From: Eledone cirrhosa
Taxonomy: Eukaryota
NCBI GenBank assembly: GCA_964016885.1
Contig: OZ024745.1
Coordinates: forward strand, 54,250,001 to 54,314,000
Length of the DNA: 64,000 nt
Reading direction: 5' to 3'
Shown here: positions 4,125 to 53,270 of the stretch, one piece after another
How positions within the stretch are numbered: position 1 is the stretch's first letter
Layout of the letters: every line of letters starts with the position of its first letter
Translations under genes and position numbers: made by a program
The notes under the pieces: generated by a model
Seen by the model: the letters and a program-made list of their open reading frames with translations, nothing else
Databases searched by the model: none
Told to the model about the DNA's origin: nothing

Positions 4125-4245
4125 GACAGTGCATCTCTAGGCTAAGGTTGTAGTGTATTGGTAAGTGTATCTTTGCCGATCTAATGTATTATTCAAAAAC
4201 AATATAATATAATATAATATAATATAATATAATATAATATAATAT

Positions 4246-4425
4246 AATTGTTTCTACTTTTGGCACAAGGCCAACAATTACCCAGTGCATTACTGGTACT
4301 TTATTTTATCGACACCGTAAGGATGAAAGGCAAAGTTAACCTCGGTGTGATTTGAACTCAGACCATAAAGGGCCGTAACTCTTTGCTGCAAAGCATGGCG
4401 TCCGACCCTCTACCGATACTGCCAA
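4246..4425 (-). mobile_element. tRNA-derived SINE (family with TTTGCCTTTCATCC...GTCGATAAAATAAAGTACC body)
   Basis: Minus strand has an A-box-like GGCAGTATCGG, a B box GAGTTCAAATC and an AGTAGAAACAATTAT tail; many copies in the window. Confidence 0.85.
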
Positions 4426-5181
4426 AATATAATATAATATAATATAACACTATATTATGCAATATTACATAATATCATATTGCATTATACAATCTTATAT
4501 TTTATTATATAATGAAATATTTTACATATACAGCTTGTACTACACGCCACTCCCTTTATCAGCTGTCAATTGGACACCGTAGCAATTTCTACACCTTACG
4601 GCAGTATAGATCACTCGATCATTACTTAGCAATATTAATGGTACGAGGGAATTTCTGAGATCTTTTGCCTCACAGGGTAACACAGGATTTCATTGAACTA
4701 TCTATGTAGACAACACAATTATTTGCTCAACTGTAATCATTCGTACTATGTAAACATTATTTTTTTTTATTATTCGTTTCCCAAATCCATGCAGAAACTT
4801 TCTTCTGTTGTCTCCAGTTTACGAACCAATACTCTGCTCTCCTTCCAAAATCAGATGCCTATCTGGTAGGATATAGTAAATCCTCGCACCAATTCATGAC
4901 GTCCCATCTGTTGAAAACTCCCTAATGTGCCATTCTCCTATTTTACACGATTTCCATATTACTTGGTTCTTTTTTACAGTGTGTGTTTGTATATGTTTTA
5001 TGTGATAAGACTGGATCGTTTAAATAAAGTGTGCAGTCCTTCCGTCCGTCCGTCGGTCTTCCAAACAATTAATTCTCACAAGACTAGGGTTGACCAGAAA
5101 CTATGGAAAAAGATACTTGCCAAATGTGGTACGCAGCGGGATTGGAGGCGGATCTATACAATTACGAATTAATCTTCTAAC

Positions 5182-5296
<115 letters not shown>

Positions 5297-5297
5297 C

Positions 5298-5376
5298 GCT
5301 GCCATGTCAGCGATAATGAGGGACAGAGACCGCTGGAGAGAACTCGTCCATGGATCTCGGGAATTTTACCGGCCTT

Positions 5377-5378
<2 letters not shown>
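5298..5378 (+). mobile_element. RTE-like LINE 3' end fragment
   Basis: Translates MRDRDRWRELV, matching the RTE C-terminal A.DR..WR..V pattern; followed by (TA)n. Confidence 0.4.
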
Positions 5379-5421
<43 letters not shown>

Positions 5422-5422
5422 G

Positions 5423-5711
5423 TACCGTATTTCCCGGCGTCAAAGACGCTACTTTTTTCCTAAAATAAGTCTCAAAAATCTACCATGCGTCCTGGAGGCC
5501 GAAGCTTGTTTATTATTATTTTTCAAAGCCGCCAAGGTTTACTTTGCCTTTCATCCTTACGGGGTCGATAAAATAAAGTACCATTAATGCACTGGGTAAT
5601 TGCTGGCCTTGTGCCAAAAGTAGAAACAATTATTATTTTTCAAATTTTTGGTTGTCAAAATTAAAGTGCGTCCTCGAGGACGAAGCGTCTTCAGCACTTG
5701 GAAAAACGGTA
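5423..5711. mobile_element. Tc1/mariner-type MITE interrupted by a SINE
   Basis: Termini TACCGTATTTCC ... GGAAAAACGGTA (TA-flanked inverted repeats); SINE fragment inside. Confidence 0.7.
5528..5628 (+). mobile_element. 5'-truncated SINE with 16 bp target-site duplication
   Basis: ATTATTATTTTTCAAA at 5512-5527 and 5629-5644 flanks the SINE 3' half. Confidence 0.85.
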
Positions 5712-5929
5712 ACTAAAAGCCTGTACCGTAAACATGCCCTTGTTTCATATCATAGTAGTTATACAGTGACATAGACCTTTAGCTATTTTCCCAAATAACA
5801 TCTGAAACAACACCAACTAAACAAAAACACTAAAGAAACAATATATTTGGACCTCCAACGGTTTCAATGACGGTCTTTCCCTTCCCTGAATAACAGAACA
5901 TCCGTTACATGAAATTAATGGGTAAATGA

Positions 5930-6135
5930 CTGGTCTTTCAACTGACATGCAGTTCTCAGGGAGATTCAGAATGATACAATATGAGAAAAAGAGTGGCTCT
6001 TTAAATTATAAGTAGAATTGTGTCTGTTGTATGGACTGCAATTAAGTGTGTGGCTCAAGAACAATACGTGCTGCCGGAAATTGAACTCACGACCTTATGA
6101 TCATGTGCAAAACACGCTAACTATTAAGCCACACG
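5930..6135 (-). mobile_element. Older tRNA-derived SINE of a second family
   Basis: AAGTGTGTGGCTCAAGAACA...TTGAACTCACGACC (reverse B box); related degenerate stretches near 17440-17570, 36600-36790 and 40640-40790. Confidence 0.5.
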
Positions 6136-6362
6136 CTTTCAGAGCAGAAGTAATAACAGTGATGACAACAACAAAAACAAAAATAAAATAAACATAACAA
6201 CAAATACAATGCAATAAAAAATAACTTATATAAAATATCACAAATTAAATATTTCCATCTTGAATGTGTAACGATCTCTGCTTTCTATCCCAGTATGGCT
6301 GACCACCTTTCCACCACACTCCCATCACTCGAAAAACCAGAACACACACACATATACCCACA

Positions 6363-6420
<58 letters not shown>

Positions 6421-6452
6421 TTATCATATATATATATAAAATAAATATATAC

Positions 6453-6496
<44 letters not shown>

Positions 6497-6544
6497 AATA
6501 CATATATACATATATATATGTATATATATAATATATAATATATA

Positions 6545-6598
<54 letters not shown>

Positions 6599-6695
6599 CA
6601 TACATATTCATATATATTCATATATATATTTATATATATATATATACATATATACATGTACACACTCATACAAATGACCTACTTGAATCACTCAG

Positions 6696-6730
<35 letters not shown>

Positions 6731-7358
6731 TCACCACAAAATAAAAACAAACACAGGACATCAAAGACAACAACAAGCACCACAACGATGGCAAATGCTT
6801 TATATTACATTAATATATTAATTCAATCGATAACACTATTATTATATCACCTAGCCGCATGCTGTTTGTGCTACTCCTCTACTAGACTTTCTTGTTAATG
6901 CAAGATTCATAATAATGACGACGTTCGCGTCACAATGATCATCATGAAGCAACAATAAGAGCAACAGGACTAAGTACAGCAGTAACGACAACAGCAATAA
7001 TAGCAGCATAAAAACAATAGCAACCATCGAAACAACATCAACAGCAATGCCAACAATAAGGGTATCAATTACTAAAAAGAAAATAATGTTATTATTAATA
7101 ATAATAATGACAGCAGTAATAAAAATAAGGAAAAATAATCCTAATAGTTCTTTTTTATTAGCCACAAGGTGTTGCATATAGAATGCAGTAAATATTATAA
7201 ACAAGTGGGTTAAAACACATTTAGAGTTGGGGAGACAACGTTATATAAAAACGTGGGTAGGAGCAATGACGTTATGTAACAGATTAATTTGATCAAACAT
7301 GAAATAATTATAAAATTATTATAGAATTATTATAACATTATTATAAAACATTATTATA

Positions 7359-7885
7359 ATCCGCCGAGGTTAACTTTGCCTTTCATCCTTACGTGGTCGA
7401 TAAAATAAAGTACCAGTAATACACTGGCGTAATTGCTGGCCTTGTGCCAAAAGTAGAAACAATTATTATAATCTGCCGAGGTTAACTTTGCCTTTCATCC
7501 TTACGTGGTCGATAAAATAAAGTACCAGTAATACACTGAGATAATTGCTGGCCTTGTGCCAAAAGTAGAAACAATTATTATAATCTGCCGAGGTTAACTT
7601 TGCCTTTCATCCTTACGTGGTCGATAAAATAAAGTACCAGTAATACACTGGATAATTACTGGCCTTGTGCCAAAAGTAGAAACAATTATTATAAATTGAA
7701 TTGGCAATATCGGTAGAGGGTCGGACGCCATGCTTTGACGCATAGAGTTACGGCCCTTGCTATTCTGAGTTCAAATCCCGCCGAGGTTAACTTTGCCTTT
7801 CATCCTTACGGGGTCGATAAAATAAAGTACTAGTAATGCACTGGGTAATTGCTGGCCTTGTGCCAAAAGTAGAAACAATTATAAT
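7359..7885 (+). mobile_element. SINE cluster: three tandem 112 bp truncated copies plus one near full-length copy
   Basis: Units start at 7359, 7471 and 7583; near full-length copy with A and B boxes at about 7697-7885. Confidence 0.9.
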
Positions 7886-9045
7886 TAACAAAAAATATGT
7901 CATACAACAAACAAAGAAAAAAAACATTTAGGGTTTCCCACTCAACACAAGTGGAGTCCACTACGCAATATATAATTCCAGATCACCAAAATGCCCCCAT
8001 AAGGATTTCTTCGGAGGCTTCATCAACAAATGCATCCCATCTTCTGGGCCGAATATTTTATCTCTTCTTATACTTTCTTTTAGAATTAAGAGTTAATCAC
8101 ACCGGAGCTTTTGACAGCTATCCTATATTTTCGAGTCCACGATATATTGCGTGGGTTTTTCTTCTTCAGTTCATACGTTTTGTTAAACAAATCATTGTTG
8201 CTGGTTTTATAGAGCGTGTATTTGAAGGAATCACGCTGTTTAATGTCAATTTTCGGAGATCTCTGACAGCTGGTTTTGGTTTTATTTCGGTTTCTTTTCT
8301 ATCTTTTCTGCGCCTATTGCAACAGTCAGCCGCCTTACTTCCCATTCATTCGCATCATTACTAACGGATAAGACGGTACTGCACCTTTCACCTCAGACCA
8401 AGCGAGCTGTAGTTTTCTCTGTTATCTCAGGATTAAGAAGAGGGGCTTCGGAATTGTTCGTCGCAGGAGTTTGTGCCAGTGAGTTAATGTCAAACGCGTT
8501 CGCCCACGGGCGTTGTTGATTTTGTTGTTATTTCTGTTATTTGTACTAGGAAAATTATCATTTTCGGACCCAAGATTGCGTGTATTATTCGATTTATTTA
8601 TTTTTTTGTTAGTCTTTTTGTAAACTCATTTTAGTATTCTAGCCAATTTTTCAGTCTATAAGGGTATTTTACCAAGCTATTATTTATAGCAATCAACTGT
8701 GTTAACAGTTATTTTCAGCCTTCGAGATTATCTAAATTTTCTAAGAGTTTCAATTCACTCGATGCTCCGGTGGTTTATTTATTAATGTTGTGTCATTTCA
8801 GTATATTTATCGAGTATCGCTCTGGTTTGTTTTGATTCAGAGTCAGACATGCCAGATTTTCTCATGTTCATACATGCTCATAAACATGTCAGATCTTCAC
8901 AGTAACAAGTAATGTTGTCCGAAAAAACAGACTTTACGTTTATCCCAGATATTAGGATGGATAGCCCGATCTTTATAAGTTCATTTTTTTGCAACAACCA
9001 CAATAATAATGATACTACTACTACTACTACTACTACTACATATAA

Positions 9046-9665
9046 TAATTGTTTCTACTTTAGGCACAAGGCCAGCAATTAACCAGTGCATTACTGGTAC
9101 TTTATTTTATCGACCCCGTAAGGATGAAAGGCAAAGTCAACCTCGGCGGGATTTGAACTCAGATCGTAAAGGACGTAACTATGCTGGAAAGCATGGCGTC
9201 CGACCCTCTACCCATACTGCCAATCCACCGCCCTACATATAATAATGATTTAGGCACAGGGCCAGCAATTTTGGAGGCGGAGAATGTCGATTAAATCGAC
9301 CCTTGTGCGTTATTGGTGCTTTATTTTATCGACCCTTAAGTATGAATGGCAAAGATTACCTCGGCGGGATCTGAACTCAGAGAATACGTAAAGAGCCATA
9401 ACTCTATGCCGCAAAGCATATTGTCCGACCCTCTACCGATACTGCCAATTCACCGCTCTTTATATAATCATCATAATAATTGTTTCTACTTTTGGTACAA
9501 GGCCAGCAAATATCCAGTGTATTACTGGTACTTTATTTTATCGACCCCGTAAGGATGAAAGGCAAAGTCAACCTCGGCGGGATTTGAACTCAGATCGTAA
9601 AGGGACGTAACTATGCTGGAAAGCATGGCGTCCGACCCTCTACCGATACTGCCAATTCACCGCCA
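9046..9665 (-). mobile_element. Three head-to-tail SINE copies (middle one a divergent subfamily)
   Basis: Copies at about 9046-9230, 9250-9455 and 9478-9665 share GATTTGAACTCAG and ACCCTCTACCGATACTGCC-like motifs. Confidence 0.88.
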
Positions 9666-10379
9666 ATTACACATATATAATGTCGGCTTGACACAGTTGG
9701 TCGGTAGCTGTATGAGACATAACATTTTATTATATTTTGCATGGGGTTGTTTTCAGCAAGTGAATTGACAAGATGGCTAACGTTAACAACTTATTCATGA
9801 TAACGCTTTAAAACACACATATAAAATGTTGTGTGAGTAGATGATCGATCCAACATAAATTGAATGGTGATGGTAATATCGAAGATAAATACAACTACAC
9901 TTTCAAATACTTTGATATCGTATAATATTACACATCTAACGGTCTACATCAGAAAACGATACATGAGTATACCACCACACCAGACAAAATTATGAGAATG
10001 AGAGCAAAATGGGAATTTTTTTTCTCGGATAAGAAACACAAAAACGAACATTTCGATATAGCCGTGACAAGTTAAATCAATTTGGTCGGGTTATACATCC
10101 TACAAACACTGACAAATAGAACAGAATTTACAATTAAAAGAATTTACAGGTATGTGGGTCTAGGGCATGGCCAGCATGCTATGGATAAATTCAGAAGAAA
10201 AGAACATTAATTTAGTAAAAAAACTTTAATTTAAAATTCATAATAAATACACTCTAGAAGAAAGTACATTTTCTAGACGCAACATTAAATATACAAACAT
10301 ACGAGTTCAAATCCCACAAATGTTCAGCGAAGACACAATAAACATAAAGAGGAAATTTAATCGCACGCTCACGAACATA

Positions 10380-10871
10380 GATCACTTTCAGACAGTATTA
10401 GACGGCATAAATCTAAAACAGTGGATACAGAAAAATTAAATAAACCTTCCGCCTACAACTATAGAGCCTTAGGTACTAGTGGGTTTAATGACAAGATACT
10501 CGATATCAATTAGTACTTAAGCTAAAAAACAGCGAAAAATCGCTCTTGTTCTTGGGTCCAAAAGAATAGATGTGATGTCTCATTTTAGTTTTCTTTAAGG
10601 CCATATACGTATTTACTCCGACGGAATTCATGTTTGATCTGTTTACTATTTCTTTCGACAAACATATCTTAACCATAGAGAAACTAGTCGCGCCTCTACA
10701 ATTACAGATATGGGTGATTATTGTGTCTTGCTTATGAACTTTAGTTGTGTTTGACATTTTTACTGCTATATTCCTCATAGAGATATTGTTAGATTTAAAA
10801 CATTTATTAAAGGCATTTCGATATCGATGTGAAATAGGAAGAGGCGTACTAATCGGTGTTACAAAGATCAT
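10380..10871 (-). pseudogene. Degenerate PLE GIY-YIG endonuclease fragment
   Basis: CNCRGATS..KICLSKEIV..TY...KMRHHIYSF parallels CNCPIRTNCPLSNFCLDKNLVY of the 47.3 kb copy. Confidence 0.55.
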
Positions 10872-10874
10872 TTA

Positions 10875-11057
10875 GATTGGCAGTATCAGTAGAGAGTCGG
10901 ACACCATGTTTTCCAGCATAGAGTTACGTCCCTTTATTGACCGAGTTCAAATCCCGCCAAGGTTACTTTGCCTTTCATCCTTACGGGGTCTATAAAATAA
11001 AGTTCCAGTAATGTACTGGTAATTGCTGGCCTTGGGCGAAAACTAGAAACAATTATT
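10875..11057 (+). mobile_element. tRNA-derived SINE
   Basis: GGCAGTATCAG, GAGTTCAAATCCC, family body and AGAAACAATTATTA tail. Confidence 0.85.
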
Positions 11058-11241
11058 ACTTCTGATAATATGAAATTATATTATTACCAGATGAAAGTTT
11101 CCATTTCTATATTTAATGACATTTAACATGGGTTGTTCTGTGTATTTCAGTGTGATTGAAATGTGGCTGGCTTTCCGATTTATTTATACAGTTGTTACGT
11201 TGGGTTTACTGTAGCGGTATTGTTTTCCTGCTTTTATATTG

Positions 11242-11471
11242 CCCTTTAGCCTTTAGCATTTAAACCGGCCATAACCGGCCAGATTTCCTCACCTCTTTCT
11301 GTTCAAACTAGCTGTAACTAGCCACTCACACTTAGGTTAAGGTATTGTTCTCAAAATAAATAATACCAAAATCTCATAGATTCAATATTATGTGAGATAT
11401 TATGTAAGATAAAGCCTTTACTGAGAAAATACAATAGTATATATAAAGTAATGTAAATGCTAAAGGGTTAA
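11242..11471. mobile_element. piggyBac-like MITE
   Basis: Left CCTTTAGCATTTA and right TAAATGCTAAAGGG followed by TTAA. Confidence 0.5.
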
Positions 11472-11870
11472 TAAAATCCTTAAAAAATGTTAACTAGTGA
11501 ATTTCAAAATTTGTCCATATTTAAGTGTCTGGTAAAGTGATGTAGGGATATTGCCGAGTCCAAACTAACTGACGAACAGTGAGGTGTCTGCATTCCATAT
11601 GCTATTGATATCAGTCTCCGTATATGATTTCTAAACAAACATTCGCCGGAGATGTTCTTAGACTGAGAATGTTTTATATTGTACAATATCGAAATATTTG
11701 GTGAATATGCAATAGGATTTGTCTCCATCTTTATTAAACTAGTTCATTGTATGATTATTGTGTTTTCATAGTGTGAAGTTTGATGTATCCTCTCTTATTT
11801 TTACGTTTATAGTTTGAAGTGACTGCTCACACCCTTCTCCCTCACAAACCCGCTCAATCACACACATAGT

Positions 11871-11901
<31 letters not shown>

Positions 11902-12338
11902 GTACGTATGGATTCACCGAACATTTATTATAATGCTCGGTGTGTTTGTAAACAAACATCCCGAATTACGCCGTACAGTGTTTAGGCAACCACGTCACCT
12001 TTTTGTTCAACATTGACACAGGAACGTTGAACTAGCTATCGTCAGCATCGTATACCTTCCTGCCAGATGGTTGAACGTCTGAAAGTATATATTTTCCCTA
12101 TGCATATTAACGGCTGAGCAGCCTAATTTGCATATCGAGTGAGTTTAGTTGGCCGGGCGCACCGAAAACGATAAATGGAATAGAATGAAACGAAATTTCA
12201 TTTCTCACTTTTAGTACGGCACTTATTTAAATGTAAGTATGTATGTATATGTACACACATTCAGCACTACTTGATTTGATAGATGCCTTAAACCCATTGG
12301 TACCAAACATTATTTGTTCAGTAGTTCGTGTGTATGTG

Positions 12339-12790
<452 letters not shown>

Positions 12791-13144
12791 CACACACACA
12801 CATATATATATATATGCTTGTGTGTGTGTCTTTATATGTATGTTTGAATGCATGAATACACTGAGCTTTAGATTTAGTAGAATGTACAACCACTGATTCC
12901 AGCTGTTTATACCATCATATAATTTGGTTTCTATTAATTCCCTGGGGAATTCGTTGACCAAACGTTTTGCTTAATTGTTTTATTTATTAAAAAAGAAATA
13001 TTCTTTCTCTCAGACTGAAAGCTAAGCATTGGCACTTAAAATACTACAGTGGACCCTGCAACGCTACAGCGGGTCCTTGCAATGCGATCGTGGGCCCCTG
13101 GGGCCCATTTGCCATTGGGCAACCTGCCAACCTGGCCAGTCCGC

Positions 13145-13875
<731 letters not shown>

Positions 13876-14127
13876 ATCTTCACGCACAGGCATTGCACGA
13901 TAGAATTAATTAATAATTATTAATAATTGTTTCAACTTTCGGCACAAGGCCAGCAATTACCCAGTACATTACTGGTACTTTATTTTTTAATAATGGTATA
14001 CCGTGCAATGGCCAAATTCGATAACGGGAGGACAGCCATCATATATATATATATACACCACCTTCACCACTAATTGATTTGACAGATATCTTTAACCCAT
14101 TGATACCAAACATTATTTGGTCAGTAG

Positions 14128-14292
14128 TAGAGAGTCGGACACCATGCTTTGAAGGATAGGATTACGTCCCTTTATGATCTAAGTTCAAATCCCGCCGAGG
14201 TTAACTTTGCCTTTCATCCTTACGGGGTCGATAAAATAAAGTACCAGTAATGTACTGGGTAATTTGCTGGCCTTGTGCCTAAAGTAGAAACA
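14128..14292 (+). mobile_element. SINE with 16 bp TSD
   Basis: ATTATTTGGTCAGTAG at 14112-14127 and 14293-14308; empty paralogous site near 12308-12324. Confidence 0.9.
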
Positions 14293-14325
14293 ATTATTTG
14301 GTCAGTAGTTCGTGTGTATGTGTAA

Positions 14326-25335: not shown

Positions 25336-26165
<830 letters not shown>

Positions 26166-42008: not shown

Positions 42009-42060
<52 letters not shown>

Positions 42061-42063
<3 letters not shown>

Positions 42064-42520
42064 TTCAAAATATTAACAAATATAGACATTCGTGTGATCA
42101 AGTATATTTTATTATACATATTTCAGAGGTACTGAGCTATTTACAACAGTACGTCCTCATCAGATAAAATAAGATGATGCTTGACATACCTTGACTATGT
42201 TGATGGTTAAAATTCAGTCATGGCATGACTGAATTTTAACCATAGTCAAGGTATGTCAAGCATCATCTTATGACTGAATTTTAACCATCAACATAGTCAA
42301 GGTATGTCAAGCATCGTCTTATTTTATCTGATGAGGACGTACTGTTGTAAATAGCTCAGTACCTCTGAAATATTTATAATAAAATATACTTGATCACACG
42401 AATGTCTATATTTGTTAATATTTTGAATTAATATTAATAACTTCGGAAAACCATAGCAGTGGAGTGCTTCTAATCTATTGTAAAACTTTATTCATTGATT
42501 TATTCATTGAACCTTGTTTA
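42061..42520 (+). mobile_element. PLE-type inverted-arm insertion, family G
   Basis: 42061-42221 is inverted at 42270-42430; partial extra copy at 42225-42270; tail to about 42520; (TA)n flanks. Confidence 0.82.
42106..42170 (-). ncRNA. Type I hammerhead (mirror 42321-42385 on plus)
   Basis: ATTTTAT-CTGATGA-GGACGTACTG...CAGTACCTCT-GAAA-TATGTA-TA-ATAAAAT. Confidence 0.75.
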
Positions 42521-43536: not shown

Positions 43537-43990
43537 AGCCAGTAGCTTGAAATGCATAGACAGTTATCCTCCGCTGCTTCTACTGGAATCCGCTAGACGG
43601 CACTAGCCATCAGCCTTTCAATAGCTGGGTTTTCAAAATGTTTATTTATTAAACATACCATTTATCTTTAGATATATGAAATTCCCATACATATATGTAT
43701 ACAGCTATGCCGAAGCTAAATTTTAATTCTACTTTTAGGTTGAGCCAACTTATACAGCTTCGTATGCAAATGAGGCTAATCAGCGCAACTACACAGGCAA
43801 AAAGACATTATATTTTCGCCTATTCCAAGTTCCAGCAGAGAGCAAGGGAAAGCACTGTTCTGATGAGAACCACTAGCTCGAAATGTATACACAGTTATCC
43901 CCGGTAGTTTCTGCTGGAATCCGCTAGACGGCGCTGGCCATCAACCTTTCAGTATTCATAGCTGGACTTTCAAAGTGTTTATTTATTATA
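43537..43990 (+). mobile_element. Retrozyme-like tandem, 331 nt period (about 1.4 units)
   Basis: GAAATGCATA at 43549 and GAAATGTATA at 43880 start ~110 bp direct repeats; hammerhead at 43854-43895. Confidence 0.6.
43854..43895 (+). ncRNA. Minimal type I hammerhead, slightly degenerate
   Basis: ACTGTT-CTGATGA-GA..TC-GAAA-TG(T/C)A-TA-(C/G)ACAGT when both tandem copies are combined. Confidence 0.65.
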
Positions 43991-43994
43991 CTGC

Positions 43995-44379: not shown

Positions 44380-45220
44380 GAAAACTGGGACAACAGCCTG
44401 GGACAGGAAGGTTTTCAGGGGTATAGCCAGCGTCCAATAAGTTCCTCCACGGATTAGCTAGAGGAGATGCAGGCTGGTGTCGACACACCTTCCGGACACT
44501 AACAAGGAATATATCGGGGGCCTACTGCTGAAATGCAATATCTATATTCGCAAATGTCTAGGTTGGCTACGAACGTTTGCATAGGCAAATTGAAGTTTTG
44601 TAAAGAAGAACACTGCAAAGCAACCACAGTAAGAAGATAGATTCCAAATGTGAGGGGATTTAGGAGGTTTAGCTGATCTGGATGGCAAATACCATTCCCT
44701 CGTTTTCAACAAAATAACACTTGACCTCGTCTTGTTGGGTAAGGAAAGGAATGTTGTAAAGATGGTGGAGTTAACAATCTCTTGAGATGCAAACTTCGAG
44801 GATGAATTCAACAAAAATATCACGATAGGAACCATCATGTTTCCTTGTAGAAATAGATGACAAGGGATTAGTCCCTTGGAGGGTTGACTCGTTGCTAAGA
44901 GCACTTGGCGTGACGGCTAAAGGAAACAAATTTCGAGGGCATTATCTGAATGAGCTGCAAAAGCGATGTACAGCACTTAGCTTAAAAAAGAAAATGGTGT
45001 GCCTGACTATCACTCGGAGTCACAACCTGACTCACCTAAGATTATGCAATTGTGCAGCAGTTTCGTCACCTAACTTGGAAGTTGGCTCCTAGTAGTTCCG
45101 GTGTCACGCCGGAAGGGAACAAAACGCCTAACATGTTTCTTCACCGCCTGTTGAAACATCGAATCCTGCATCCGGAGATGGAGTACAACATCACATTCAG
45201 AACGTAAGTGTATATACCAA

Positions 45221-45222
<2 letters not shown>
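44380..45222 (+). mobile_element. Decayed RLE-type (Hero-like) non-LTR retrotransposon 3' end
   Basis: ADLDGK...DLVLLGKERNVVKMVELTIS*DANFED and LLRALGV...RALSE*AAKA resemble the PDLVL...IELTVPWE.N.E restriction-like endonuclease C-terminus; ends at (TA)n. Confidence 0.55.
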
Positions 45223-45278
<56 letters not shown>

Positions 45279-45368
45279 CAAATTTATACGGAAACAAAAC
45301 AGAGAGACAGACAAAAATATATATATATAGTAAAAATGCAACAAAAATGGTTATAAGAGTTCCATATA

Positions 45369-45434
45369 TTTTACTATACGTATTTCGAATACAAAATCAT
45401 CCTGGGAGAGATGTTGTGTTCTCTTCAGATAAAA
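45369..45434 (-). ncRNA. Type I hammerhead in the inverted pLTR
   Basis: TTTTAT-CTGAAGA-GAACACAACATC...GATGATTTTGTATTC-GAAA-TACGTA-TA-GTAAAA. Confidence 0.82.
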
Positions 45435-45593
45435 AATAAGGTACAATGATATGCACTTGTTTATAGGAAAATGCTAAGTCTACATATGACAGAAATATAT
45501 GTGTTAATACTATAGTAAGAAATAGATAGGAAAAGAGAAAGGAAAGAAGAAGAGAAAAAAGGAAAAAGAGAGAGAAGAAAGAAAAAAGAAGGA

Positions 45594-45650
<57 letters not shown>

Positions 45651-45776
45651 TTGATCAGGGACGCTGTCAAATTGAAAACAGCTGTAAATAACGGTTAAAA
45701 AATGAATTGATGATGTGTATGTGCGAATATTATAGAAGGTATTCAAATATTACAGGTCTAAATATAGAAACTGGCT

Positions 45777-45870
45777 GGGGTTGACTTTGCCTTTCATCCT
45801 TAGAGGTCGATAAAATAAAGTACCAGTAATGCACTGGATAATTGCTGGCCTTGTGCCTAAAGTAGAAACA
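45777..45870 (+). mobile_element. Truncated SINE present only in the left arm
   Basis: SINE 3' half; the right arm reads through the site uninterrupted at about 48115-48135. Confidence 0.85.
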
Positions 45871-46029
45871 ATTATTTTATATTGGGTTTAAATACTAAAA
45901 ATTGGTTTAAGATGTGTAAAAATGTATTAATAAAATAAATATGAAAAGATTTTTATAGAATAAAATAGTCTATCTATGTCAAATTTAATAATTTCTAGTA
46001 AAAATATATATTTAAGTTTTATTTTATGG

Positions 46030-47707
46030 TTGGGTTCATCTGAAGTAATAGACTGGTTCAATGACCTAAAAAATCAAAACAAACTGTAATTTATTCAATT
46101 AGGCATTGGTAGCTATTACTCTTCTATTTCTCCTTCACTCCTAAACAAGGCTCTCTTATGCTTTAAAATATACGGACATTACTAGTGATGAAATAAACAT
46201 CATTCTCACCGCTAGGAAAACCATCTTGGAATTTAAGAACGAATATTGGACAAGAGCGCATACTTCCAACAATTTCGACATCACCATGGGTTCTTCGGAT
46301 TCAGCTCAACTGACCGACTTAGTTGGAATTTTCATCTTGAATTCTTTAAACTGGAAAATACCCCAACTTTGCGGTGGGACTTATCGTGATGATGCTCTCT
46401 TTACTGTCTCTAATTGTAACACTGTAAACTTTAATATACTTAAGAAAAAAATACTTGATCTATTTAACCATCTTAACTTAAAAATTGAATTCGAGAATAA
46501 CGATAAACTAGCAAATTTCATTGATATATCCCTTAATCTAGATACCGGCCTATATTACCAATATCATAAGGATAATGAGAACTTAAATTACGTTAACTTT
46601 AAATCTAACCACCCTAATGACGTTAAAACTGCCATAGTCAAAAGCGTAGAAAAAAGAATTTATAATTTATCCTCTAATAGGAATATCTTCGAAGTTAATG
46701 CCAACTATTATAATAATGCGCTATCTAGAGCTGGATATCTAGACAGAATTAGGTATTCCAAAGAACATAATCTTAGTAGAGGTTATAATAACTCTAGTAA
46801 TGTAGCTAGTAATAATCATACTGCTAACAAAAGGAAGAGACCTAGATATAAAAATATTCTTTGGTACAACGCTCCCTTCTCTCTTTCCGTTATTAATAAT
46901 ATCCCTAAATTATTTTTAGGGCATTACATAACAGCTCCTCTCCTTCACATACATATAGCAAGATTTTCAATAGGCATACTATTAAATTCTCGTATTCTAC
47001 TACTTCGAACATTTCAAAAATTATCTCAAGACATAATTCTAAAATATTAAATAATAACTCATATGCATCCAACCACGAGAGTCATAATAATAACAGTATA
47101 AGGCCCGACGTCGATGTAAACTCTAGTCAAAATAATAAGTATAATACGACGTCAAACGTAACTTTGAGGAATGCTTCAAATAGTAATGTAAATCTAGAAA
47201 CTTTAGTACCTCTTTTAGTTAATTCCACCACTCCTGATGGTAATATAATTAATCCTGGGCCACTTGCCAATACCTCTGTAAATAATCTTAATCGTAAATG
47301 CAACTGCCCTATTAGAACTAATTGTCCTCTTAGTAATTTCTGTCTCGATAAAAACCTAGTATACGAATGTAAAGTGGTAACCAGTACCAATTCCTATACC
47401 TACATTGACTCTACTTCTACCTCCTTTAAAGCAAGATTCTATAATCCTTTTTCTACGTTTAAATCTCCACTTAAAAGGATTATCAGAACTTATTTGGTCC
47501 TTAAAAGACAAAAACATAAATTACGAAATTTCTTGGCGTAAAATCTACAACGCATCTCCATACCTTAATGCTAGTGTTTGTAATTTATGTCTAGTTGAAA
47601 AATTTACCATTATCTCAAATTTCAACACAATAATAAATTGAAGAACCGATTTATTTGGACTTTGTAATCATAAATCCTACAAGACCTTTCACAAAATATA
47701 TAGCTGA
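46030..47707 (+). pseudogene. Penelope-like element polyprotein (RT + GIY-YIG), 5'-truncated and frameshifted; probably Naiad-type
   Basis: VIDWF, YYSSIS..LLNKAL, FDITMGSSDSAQLTDLVG, TYRDDAL, NFIDISLNL, SNHP, ILWYNAPFS, CNC..CPL...CL...LVY...YID, CNLCLVEK, LCNHK. Stops and frameshifts lie between ORFs 46226-47050, 47164-47541 and 47405-47641. Confidence 0.9.
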
Positions 47708-47983
47708 TGTCCTATAACATATTCCATGAGTCACTGTTATCCTTACACATCTTTCATTATATTCTACAATGTATTATTTTGGTTTTCTCATTATATATTA
47801 AGCCTTTGATCTTCGTTTGTATAGCCTTAGATTTTCGCTGAAACCTTCGTAGATTTTGTAAACAAAAGATGACGTCATATTATAATAGATTTTCTCTACG
47901 TTTTTTCTACGTTTATAAATCCTTCTAGCAATTTCCTTTATTTACTTGATGATATAAAATAAAACTTAAATAGTCTACTCCAC

Positions 47984-48250
47984 ATATATATTTTTACTAG
48001 AAATTATTAAATTTGACATAGATAGACTATTTTATTTTATAAAAATCTTTTTATATTTATTTTATTAATACATTTTTACAATTCTTAAACCAATTTTTAG
48101 TATTTAAACCCAATATAAAATAATATAGCCAGTTTCTATATTTAGACCTCTAATATTTGAATACCTTCTAATATTCGCACATAAACCTCATCAATTTATT
48201 TTGTAACCGTTATTTACAGCTGTTTTCAACTTGTCAGCGTCCCTGATCAA

Positions 48251-48327
<77 letters not shown>

Positions 48328-48602
48328 TCCTTCTTTTTTCTTTCTTCTCTTTCTTTTTCCTTTTTCTCTTCTTCTTTCATTTTCTTCTCTTTTCCTATAT
48401 ATTTCTTACTATAGTATTAACACATATATTTCTGTCATATGTAGACTTAGCATTTTCCTATAAACAAGTGCTATTATGTCTCATATCATTGTACCTTATT
48501 TTTTACCTGAAGAGAACACAACATCTGTCCCAGGATGATTTTGTATTCGAAATACGTATAATAAAATATATGGAACTCTTATAACCATCTTTATTTCATC
48601 TT

Positions 48603-48668
<66 letters not shown>

Positions 48669-49059
48669 TTGGTATATATACTTACGTTCTGAGTGTGATG
48701 TTGTACTCCATCTCCGGATGCAGGATTCGATGTTTCAACAGGTGGTGAAGAAACATGGTAGGCGTTTTGTTGTCTTCAGGCGTGACACGGAACTACTAGG
48801 AGCCCACCTCCAAGGTAGGTGACGAAACTGCTGCACAATTGCATAATCTTAGGTGAGTCAGGTTGTGACTCCGAGTGATAGTCAGGCACACCATTTTCTT
48901 TTTTAAGCTAAGTGCTGTACATCGCTTTTGCAGCTCATTCAGATAATGCCCTCGAAATTTGTTTCCTTTAGCCGTCACGCCAAGTGCTCTTAGCAACGAG
49001 TCAACCCTCCAAGGGACTAATCCGCTGTCATCTATTTCTACAAGGAAACATGATGGTTC
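47984..49059. repeat. Right arm of the inverted repeat (sense pLTR plus inverted copy of the left flank)
   Basis: See left arm; the pLTR tail resumes at 49060-49162. Confidence 0.92.
48501..48566 (+). ncRNA. Type I hammerhead in the 3' pLTR
   Basis: TTTTAC-CTGAAGA-GAACACAA...TTGTATTC-GAAA-TACGTA-TA-ATAAAA; one stem I mismatch. Confidence 0.78.
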
Positions 49060-49158
49060 TTTATTTCATCTTTACTATATATACTCCAGTTCTACCAACT
49101 GTTGAGTGCTCCTTGTCTGATTTATGCATAGTTTTATTGTTCTACAATATTACTCACC

Positions 49159-49218
<60 letters not shown>

Positions 49219-49298
49219 TTGGTTTATACTTTACACACACACACGCACACATATATATGTTTATGAATGCAAACACACAGACACACACAGACACACAC

Positions 49299-52132: not shown

Positions 52133-53107
52133 CATACTTCTTTCTGTCAGTATGAAACTCCAAAAATTACAATTACAAAAAGAAAACAAAAAAAAAACAA
52201 AGAAAAAAACCCAGCTGCTTTCCTAAGTAAATACATACTTAAATACATTTACAGACACACACACACGTTAAAAAGAAGCAACAACTAAAAAAAGAAAACA
52301 ATAGACTAAAAAAAAAAGCAAAGAAAAGAAAACAAGCTGTTGGTGACCTTTCATAGAAATTTGGCACCAAACAAGGTCAGAATATTGTTGAATTGAAATA
52401 GATATCTATGTCGAAAGGAAGTCGATAAATCAATTGACTTTGTTCTCACCTAATAGCTACTAGTGAGAACTTCCGACAAAAAACACATTCTGTCTCTCAC
52501 CGAAATAACAAAACAAAACAAAAAGCAAAGTAGCCAAATAAATACATGATAAAAAAAAGACAAAGAATTCGACTAAAAAATTAGCACCCCCTCCCACTTC
52601 CTAAAAAAAAATTAAATAGCTTCCGTTGTTTTTCTTGGTTGGTGTACAGTTTGGTAGTTGCAAATTTTCCTTTTCTTTTCGTTTTCTCAAAAATAGGTGG
52701 TGTTGATTGCAGGAAGGTGTGGGTGGTAGGGTGGTAGTATTAACGAACGAAAAGGTGTGATCAAAAATAAAGAAAAGCTTATCAAATTCGGAAATAAAGT
52801 ATCTATTTATTTGTTTGTATATGATCGTTATCAAGTATTTTGTTTTAAATTTTTTATTAGATTTAATAAGATACGCAACGAATTATGTAGTCTTACTTTC
52901 AGCGTAGATTGTCTACAGTTCTATGTTTTGATATGTCTTAGTGCACACTTAACTGTGTATGAATATATTTCAATCACTTTCTTATAATGATTAAGGCTCG
53001 ATTTTATTCTCTGAATTCTATCTTGAGCTGTTTATAGAGACAAGACATATGTTTGATTTTGTATCATTCATGACACCCTTTACTTTGAAAGTAATAATAA
53101 TAATAAT

Positions 53108-53270
53108 AATTGTTTCTACTTTTGGCACATGGCCAGCAATTACCCAGTGCATTACTGGTACTTTATTTTATCAACCCCGTAAGGATGAAAGGCAAAGTTA
53201 ACCTCGGCGGTATTTGAACTCAGAATGGCAAGGACCGTAACTCTATGCATCAAAGCATGGCGTCCGACCC
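53108..53270 (-). mobile_element. tRNA-derived SINE in (AAT)n
   Basis: Family body and reverse B box TTTGAACTCAG. Confidence 0.87.

Follow-up and report, generated by a model that had tools for sequence, protein, structure and literature searches.

How does a stretch of host DNA come to lie, inverted, inside the pLTR of a retroelement? The question is raised by a Penelope-like element (PLE) of Eledone cirrhosa, analysed here within a window of 64,000 nucleotides (contig OZ024745.1, positions 54,250,001 to 54,314,000), in which the sequence to the left of the element recurs in the opposite orientation within its right pLTR. We consider it probable that a single insertion in (TA)n carries an inverted copy of its left flank that arose from a local template switch during integration. 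The locus is laid out as follows (positions are those of the window):

44829–45221, plus strand: F, the donor flank, in which an old and decayed retroposon family has its 3' end (20 relatives, mostly 67–77% alike, with coinciding ends)
45222–45275: left (TA)n, the target microsatellite, read in the sequence
45276–45317: X, a 42-bp solo fragment from a different TA-targeting repeat family, found only in the left arm (genome search)
before 45330: (TA)6 between X and P'; the tail-less P' is joined onto it
45330–46027, minus strand: P', the inverted tail-less pLTR (self-alignment)
45777–45870: short repeat of ~94 bp, an insertion confined to the left arm (the window has at least 10 further matches)
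46023–47710, plus strand: ORF, 5'-truncated and frameshifted, with putative reverse transcriptase, CxCX5C linker and C-terminal GIY-YIG-type endonuclease (motifs, family copies)
47954–48605, plus strand: P, the part of the right pLTR mirrored in P', ending at the internal TA site (self-alignment)
near 48500–48570: hammerhead-like motif within P
48606–48667: (TA)31, separating P from the flank copy
48668–49059, minus strand: F', the left flank copied inverted (self-alignment, genome search, read contigs)
49059–49083, plus strand: p, a 25-bp repeat of 48589–48613, with the element's own rare C at 49075
49084–49161, plus strand: family tail, 78 bp
49162–49217: right (TA)n
49218–49229, minus strand: f', a second inverted match to the end of F, 12 bp (11/12)

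The inverted copy of the left flank

The sequence-only reading had taken 48668–49059 for a nearly identical inverted copy of the left flank, and self-alignment agrees: F (393 bp) and F' (392 bp) differ by 12 substitutions and one 1-bp deletion. With the pLTR arms they form a single inverted repeat in the self-alignment, 44829–46027 against 49059 down to ~47954, which runs through F and P' on one side and F' and P on the other and is broken by microsatellites and by two left-arm insertions; P' and the element body overlap by five shared bases (46023–46027). A genome search with F returned 22 matches, two of them the window copies (100% and 97%), and the other 20 are 67–77% alike, except for one 66-bp match at 83%. 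F' is thus closer to its own flank (97%) than to any other genomic copy (67–83%), and the young family with equally similar copies, which the sequence-only reading had set against its own claim, has no counterpart among these matches. Next-best matches as distant as these argue that F' is not an independent insertion. The relatives of F stop where F stops, which identifies F as an old family's natural 3' end, with (TA)n following it. From its translation the flank may be Hero-like; Pfam gave no match for F and the atlas none for the flank peptide. F' starts at the target (TA)n, and its template adjoins the insertion site. F' is a local copy, and it is old.

Copy and pLTR are joined through a direct repeat of 25 bp, CTTTATTTCATCTTTACTATATATA (48589–48613 and 49059–49083). 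Direct repeats around the copy had been noticed before and are indeed present, the string then given being too long by one base, a T. The pLTR tail does resume after the copy, as had also been claimed, since 49084–49161 is the normal continuation in the family. P', P and p all carry a C at a position at which T is found in 78 of 85 other family ends and C in one (only identical contexts having been removed from this count), and three copies of the exact 24-mer containing the rare C exist in the 3.0-Gb genome, two of them here; p therefore appears to derive from this element and not from a second family insertion. F' begins at the internal TATATATA, where the tail-less ends of the family meet host (TA)n, and this insertion has two tail-less junctions, both made at the internal TA site and both placed behind a copy of F. 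Two bases are shared at the F'/p junction, and a 7-bp inverted match brackets it (48583–48589 and 49052–49058).

Several other repeats lie in and near the left arm. Four derived substitutions fall within 12 bp next to X (45335–45346); a related family was considered as their source and had no match in any fetched locus except the window's own. X-type sequence of 40 bp, sought among the best 40 of 717 first-look candidates, stands alone between TA tracts in many places (window 45276–45317, loci L084–L094) and could derive from a different Penelope family that targets TA, as its solo tail. The short repeat of ~100 bp has at least 10 copies (window 4236–14299, 45777–45870 and 53100–53203) and splits the pLTR at about the same spot in several other family copies (among them L025, L030 and L033). 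Older pieces of a related pLTR family, 73–82% alike, are found at 25434–26067 and 42011–42124 of the window, and another short repeat has two copies 81% alike at 43539–43654 and 43870–43991.

The element and its family

The element, a PLE truncated at its 5' end, has Hydra-clade motifs and belongs to a large family that targets (TA)n. In the genome its pLTR end, tail and ORF each had >1,000 first-look candidates, the best 40 of which were scored in each case, with matches 88–97% alike; the element body is 3.1% off the family majority (57/1855). Nearly all of the family ends listed lie in (TA)n. The reverse transcriptase motif G-x-Y-R-D-D is found both in the window and in the family, and the endonuclease motif YIGSTSTSF in 24 of 41 sequences (the window copy reads YID). 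DKT stands in place of DKG, as VLVHSDKTNNLYGI, in 13 of the 41, the window copy being truncated before this motif. The CxCX5C linker, which 13 of the 41 have in all, reads CNCPIRTNC in the window. Judged by eye and unaligned, the endonuclease is without CCHH, having one cysteine only before YIG, with CNLCLVE in 17 of the 41 and GLCNH present; CxxC and CxH around a conserved E and N are there and look Hydra-like, again by eye and not against reference proteins. At the place of the N-terminal RWK two of three longer copies have RLRWIA and the third a stop, and RWK itself was not found. The set published for the Hydra clade comprises DKT, CxCX5C, RWK, CxxC/CxH, absence of CCHH, a hammerhead and (TA)n (available part of PMC8557442); our label follows it in DKT, CxCX5C, CxxC/CxH, the lack of CCHH and (TA)n, and is thus motif-based. 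Pfam gave no RT or GIY-YIG match in the window or in a longer family copy. Across 69 loci, hammerhead core motifs gave 26 matches, of which at least 15 have a perfect 6-bp stem I; Rfam returned no hammerhead match, its only other matches being microsatellite-driven microRNA ones far under the cut-offs, and the window copies did not fold into a hammerhead. A hammerhead-like core with a 6-bp stem I occurs in loci L024–L052 and L120–L159 too, and the right copy of the window has a change in the hammerhead-like stem I at 48506.

Longer family copies (40 stretches) include pLTR–tail–ORF–pLTR tandems as well as inverted arms, the pLTRs being in tandem in L124 and inverted in L126, L137 and L150. The family pLTR continues unbroken via TATATATA into the 78-bp tail; at the internal TATATATA the tail-less ends break off and border on host (TA)n. 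A complete copy pairs a tailed end with a tail-less one, and many tailed arms end 30–120 bp past the internal TATATATA, as p does. Many members are ORF-less hairpins of 150–700 bp made of a tailed and a tail-less pLTR end (L054–L082, L160–L184).

Within this family the capture of flanking DNA is a one-off. The genome has 25 exact tail-less ends, and no other than this has a same-strand tail within 1.5 kb; in 35 other opposite-end pairs (overlapping loci not removed) at most 8 of 12 outward bases are shared. A survey of 98 family loci, many of them one-ended, so that sensitivity is limited, showed no further inverted host copy next to an element. The suggestion that such captures are a way for PLE inverted repeats to grow and to resemble a TIR element is not borne out by one case in 25 ends and none other in the 98 loci. 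The TIR-like resemblance fails as well, since the search with F revealed no daughter copies of the captured DNA in the genome and the 78-bp tail lies outside the inverted repeat. As regards a TIR transposon or fold-back element, the repeats here do not lie at the very ends, and the flank arms have no other copies.

Short TA-centred fold-backs look like a common event in this host genome. Palindromic flanks of 13–46 bp, well off background, accompany 8 of 231 (TA)n tracts that have non-simple flanks (L148:8366, L150:8552, L151:1966, L151:9564, L184:2543, L087:1494, L093:1552 and L043:1997). Our first view of f' as a second capture in the same event is weakened by these tracts, which imply that f' may predate the insertion.

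Age and origin of the copy

The sequence-only reading had proposed a comparison of flank and pLTR arms, and their divergence proves to be equal: 12/391 substitutions (3.1%) between F and F' and 20/491 (4.1%) between P and P' (p = 0.47; rate ratio 0.75, 95% interval 0.34–1.62). The capture thus appears to be about as old as the insertion, the intervals being wide enough to allow a switch somewhat after it. The proximal 149 bp alone (10/149; ratio 1.65, 0.69–3.69) give the first capture at least some 0.7 of the age of the pLTR arms. A single doublet is all that differs in the distal 244 bp (distal against proximal part, Fisher p = 0.0015, with a boundary picked after looking at the data), and longest-run simulation of the distal tract gives p of 0.001–0.01. 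Polarised by the old relatives, the changes between F and F' fall four on the left and six plus the deletion on the right, with two unclear; those between the pLTR arms fall 13 on the left and seven on the right. CpG decay was rejected as the cause of the uneven divergence (7 against 8 CpG). The uniform distal tract suggests a later exchange between the arms; the tract would be accounted for by later gene conversion as well as by a second extension.

In short-read contigs of runs X1 and X2 (one sample, perhaps the source of the assembly and hence not independent of it) both versions of 48713–48845 are present side by side, one being exactly the right copy and the other having 8 differences and a gap. 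The distal contig, shared by the two arms, carries the left alleles and has a depth of 8.2 in X2, against 4.3 and 4.6 for the two proximal versions, whose depths are similar. This bubble in the proximal part and its absence in the distal part indicate that the uniform tract is probably real. None of the contigs listed for the two runs crosses 49059/49060 or has the right-copy bases at 49024–49025, so that the junction itself is known only from the assembly. An assembly artefact would suit that gap in the contigs and the lacking right-copy doublet, but it is very improbable in view of the separate proximal contigs, of the X2 depths and of the derived changes present in both arms. A read joint between 48838 and 49032 was rejected as another allele, as it belongs to an old flank relative with 204 other letters between. 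The RAD-seq runs X3–X5 barely cover the copy and are uninformative on an empty allele.

A template switch is the simplest cause of the copy. The sequence-only reading had placed such a switch between the arms; a switch is supported, as is a local origin of the copy rather than an independent insertion flanked by a target-site duplication, and the passage from arm to arm becomes one of two routes, the equal divergence speaking for the time of insertion and not for growth afterwards. We favour a switch during integration because donor and break would be neighbours only at that time, as we infer, and because the ages agree. All of the synthesis steps we likewise infer. Along one route, to which we give slightly more than an even chance within this reading, the right DNA end would prime cDNA at the end of the tail, and after ~103 nt the cDNA would shift via the two shared bases onto the left broken end and copy 393 bp as far as (TA)n. 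The new TA end would then re-prime on the element RNA at the internal TATATATA, repeating 25 bp, and the re-primed strand would go on to give the long ORF-bearing strand, the left end meanwhile priming the inverted pLTR at the same site. This route fits the family, in which short tailed arms are frequent. Along the other, slightly short of an even chance, the second strand would fold back at TATATATA along the P/P' hairpin, copy the single-stranded left flank and return 25 nt behind its point of departure. Both routes yield the identical sequence. The insertion is a scar on a dead copy, with no function in view.

Host polymerases make inverted duplications by fold-back and template switching, and the main rival to a switch during integration is a later event of this kind along the pLTR hairpin, in the course of replication or repair after an ordinary complete insertion, which was the version of the sequence-only reading. 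It may have taken two steps, possibly an early one of ~150 bp and another, much later, of 244 bp. For such a fold-back a 650-bp inverted repeat was on hand, the copy starts exactly where the P/P' homology ends, and f' is a second 12-bp copy from the same flank end; the common TA-centred fold-backs (8/231), lying away from such junctions, demonstrate that a host route exists. The nearly identical distal 244 bp suit a later step (ratio 0.2, 0.02–0.83), and with their one doublet they weigh against a single clean event, but gene conversion accounts for that tract equally. The proximal copy, moreover, is no less diverged than the pLTR arms, so that a first step would not be much younger than the insertion; X would have to be younger or to have been skipped; and the 98 family loci, several with inverted arms, hold no other case. 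On this balance we regard the later fold-back as unlikely, if the most serious of the alternatives.

The remaining alternatives change the nature of the template or of the inserted piece. The reverse transcriptase could have copied a leftward host transcript through the flank instead of DNA, returning to the element RNA at the TA site; one LINE-1 case of such a kind, with the same geometry, is given in the available part of PMC10191854, but the DNA beside the break is the simpler template, and we think this improbable. It is scarcely credible that F' was retroposed independently, as a TA-tailed fragment that entered the pLTR and produced a 25-bp target-site duplication: the order repeat–body–TA–repeat fits formally, but the assembled genome has no close relative other than the flank 4 kb away, and the flank family is old and decayed.

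Relation to known insertions

As far as the available parts of PMC8557442 and PMC3846280 describe them, EN+ Penelope-like insertions have inverted pLTRs and a tail on one end, of 30–40 bp in print. This insertion shares with them the 5'-truncated body, the inverted truncated pLTR, the one-end tail and the (TA)n target, and differs from them in the host flank inside the right pLTR, in its two tail-less junctions and in a tail of 78 bp. The Penelope-like protein of PMC11167929 cuts and extends both strands, two RNA start sites defining the tail. The anole protein described there starts in vitro without homology to the cut DNA, which, set against the TA pairing supposed here, counts against the favoured model. 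In Adineta vaga, Penelope elements have captured host DNA as spacers (PMC3846280, in part). These captures likewise place host sequence inside an element and beside a pLTR, but they consist of a unique spacer or a gene moved in trans, and no inverted copy of the adjacent flank is described in the portion available.

The closest parallels come from LINE-1, for which the accessible portions of three reports give 22 templated insertions, typically <250 bp and no more than 15 bp from the site (10.1101/2024.08.27.596794), 3 + 1 fold-back duplications of 52–220 bp upstream of the target (PMC10191854), and three templated and three inverted cases (PMC11702581). Like the present copy these are rare, duplicate the DNA adjacent to the cut, involve few shared bases and are explained by template switching. 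Here, however, the enzyme is of another class, the copy of 393 bp is longer than the typical cases, it lies 103 nt away from the element's 3' end and not upstream of its 5' end, and it is fixed in an assembled germ-line genome, whereas the LINE-1 cases are somatic. By analogy, the accident would be of a kind already described for human LINE-1, and Penelope-like elements would, like LINE-1, be able to duplicate target host DNA. Duplications by host polymerases also start at a self-complementary tract and return over few shared bases, but the present one is tied to a retroelement insertion by its place and its apparent age. In the literature covered, mostly non-subscription papers, we found no inverted adjacent-flank copy inside a pLTR.

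A single dead copy from which the direction of synthesis is unreadable is a small clue and no new system. The available parts of PMC8557442 and PMC11167929 nevertheless state as open how Penelope-like elements form inverted pLTRs and one-sided tails, and a rare mis-joined copy reveals the ends and sites in play during integration. Tentatively, the locus may even be a fossil of a Hydra-clade reverse transcriptase that ran from RNA to DNA and back to RNA within one strand, an idea to which we give a modest chance. Such an enzyme would prime by TA pairing at two fixed RNA sites, the tail end and the internal TATATATA, would be able to copy the opposite broken end and would re-prime from the copied TA, and the repeat would later be lengthened or renewed by exchange between the arms. 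If true, this would provide a testable model for inverted pLTRs and one-sided tails, unlike the homology-free start of the anole protein.
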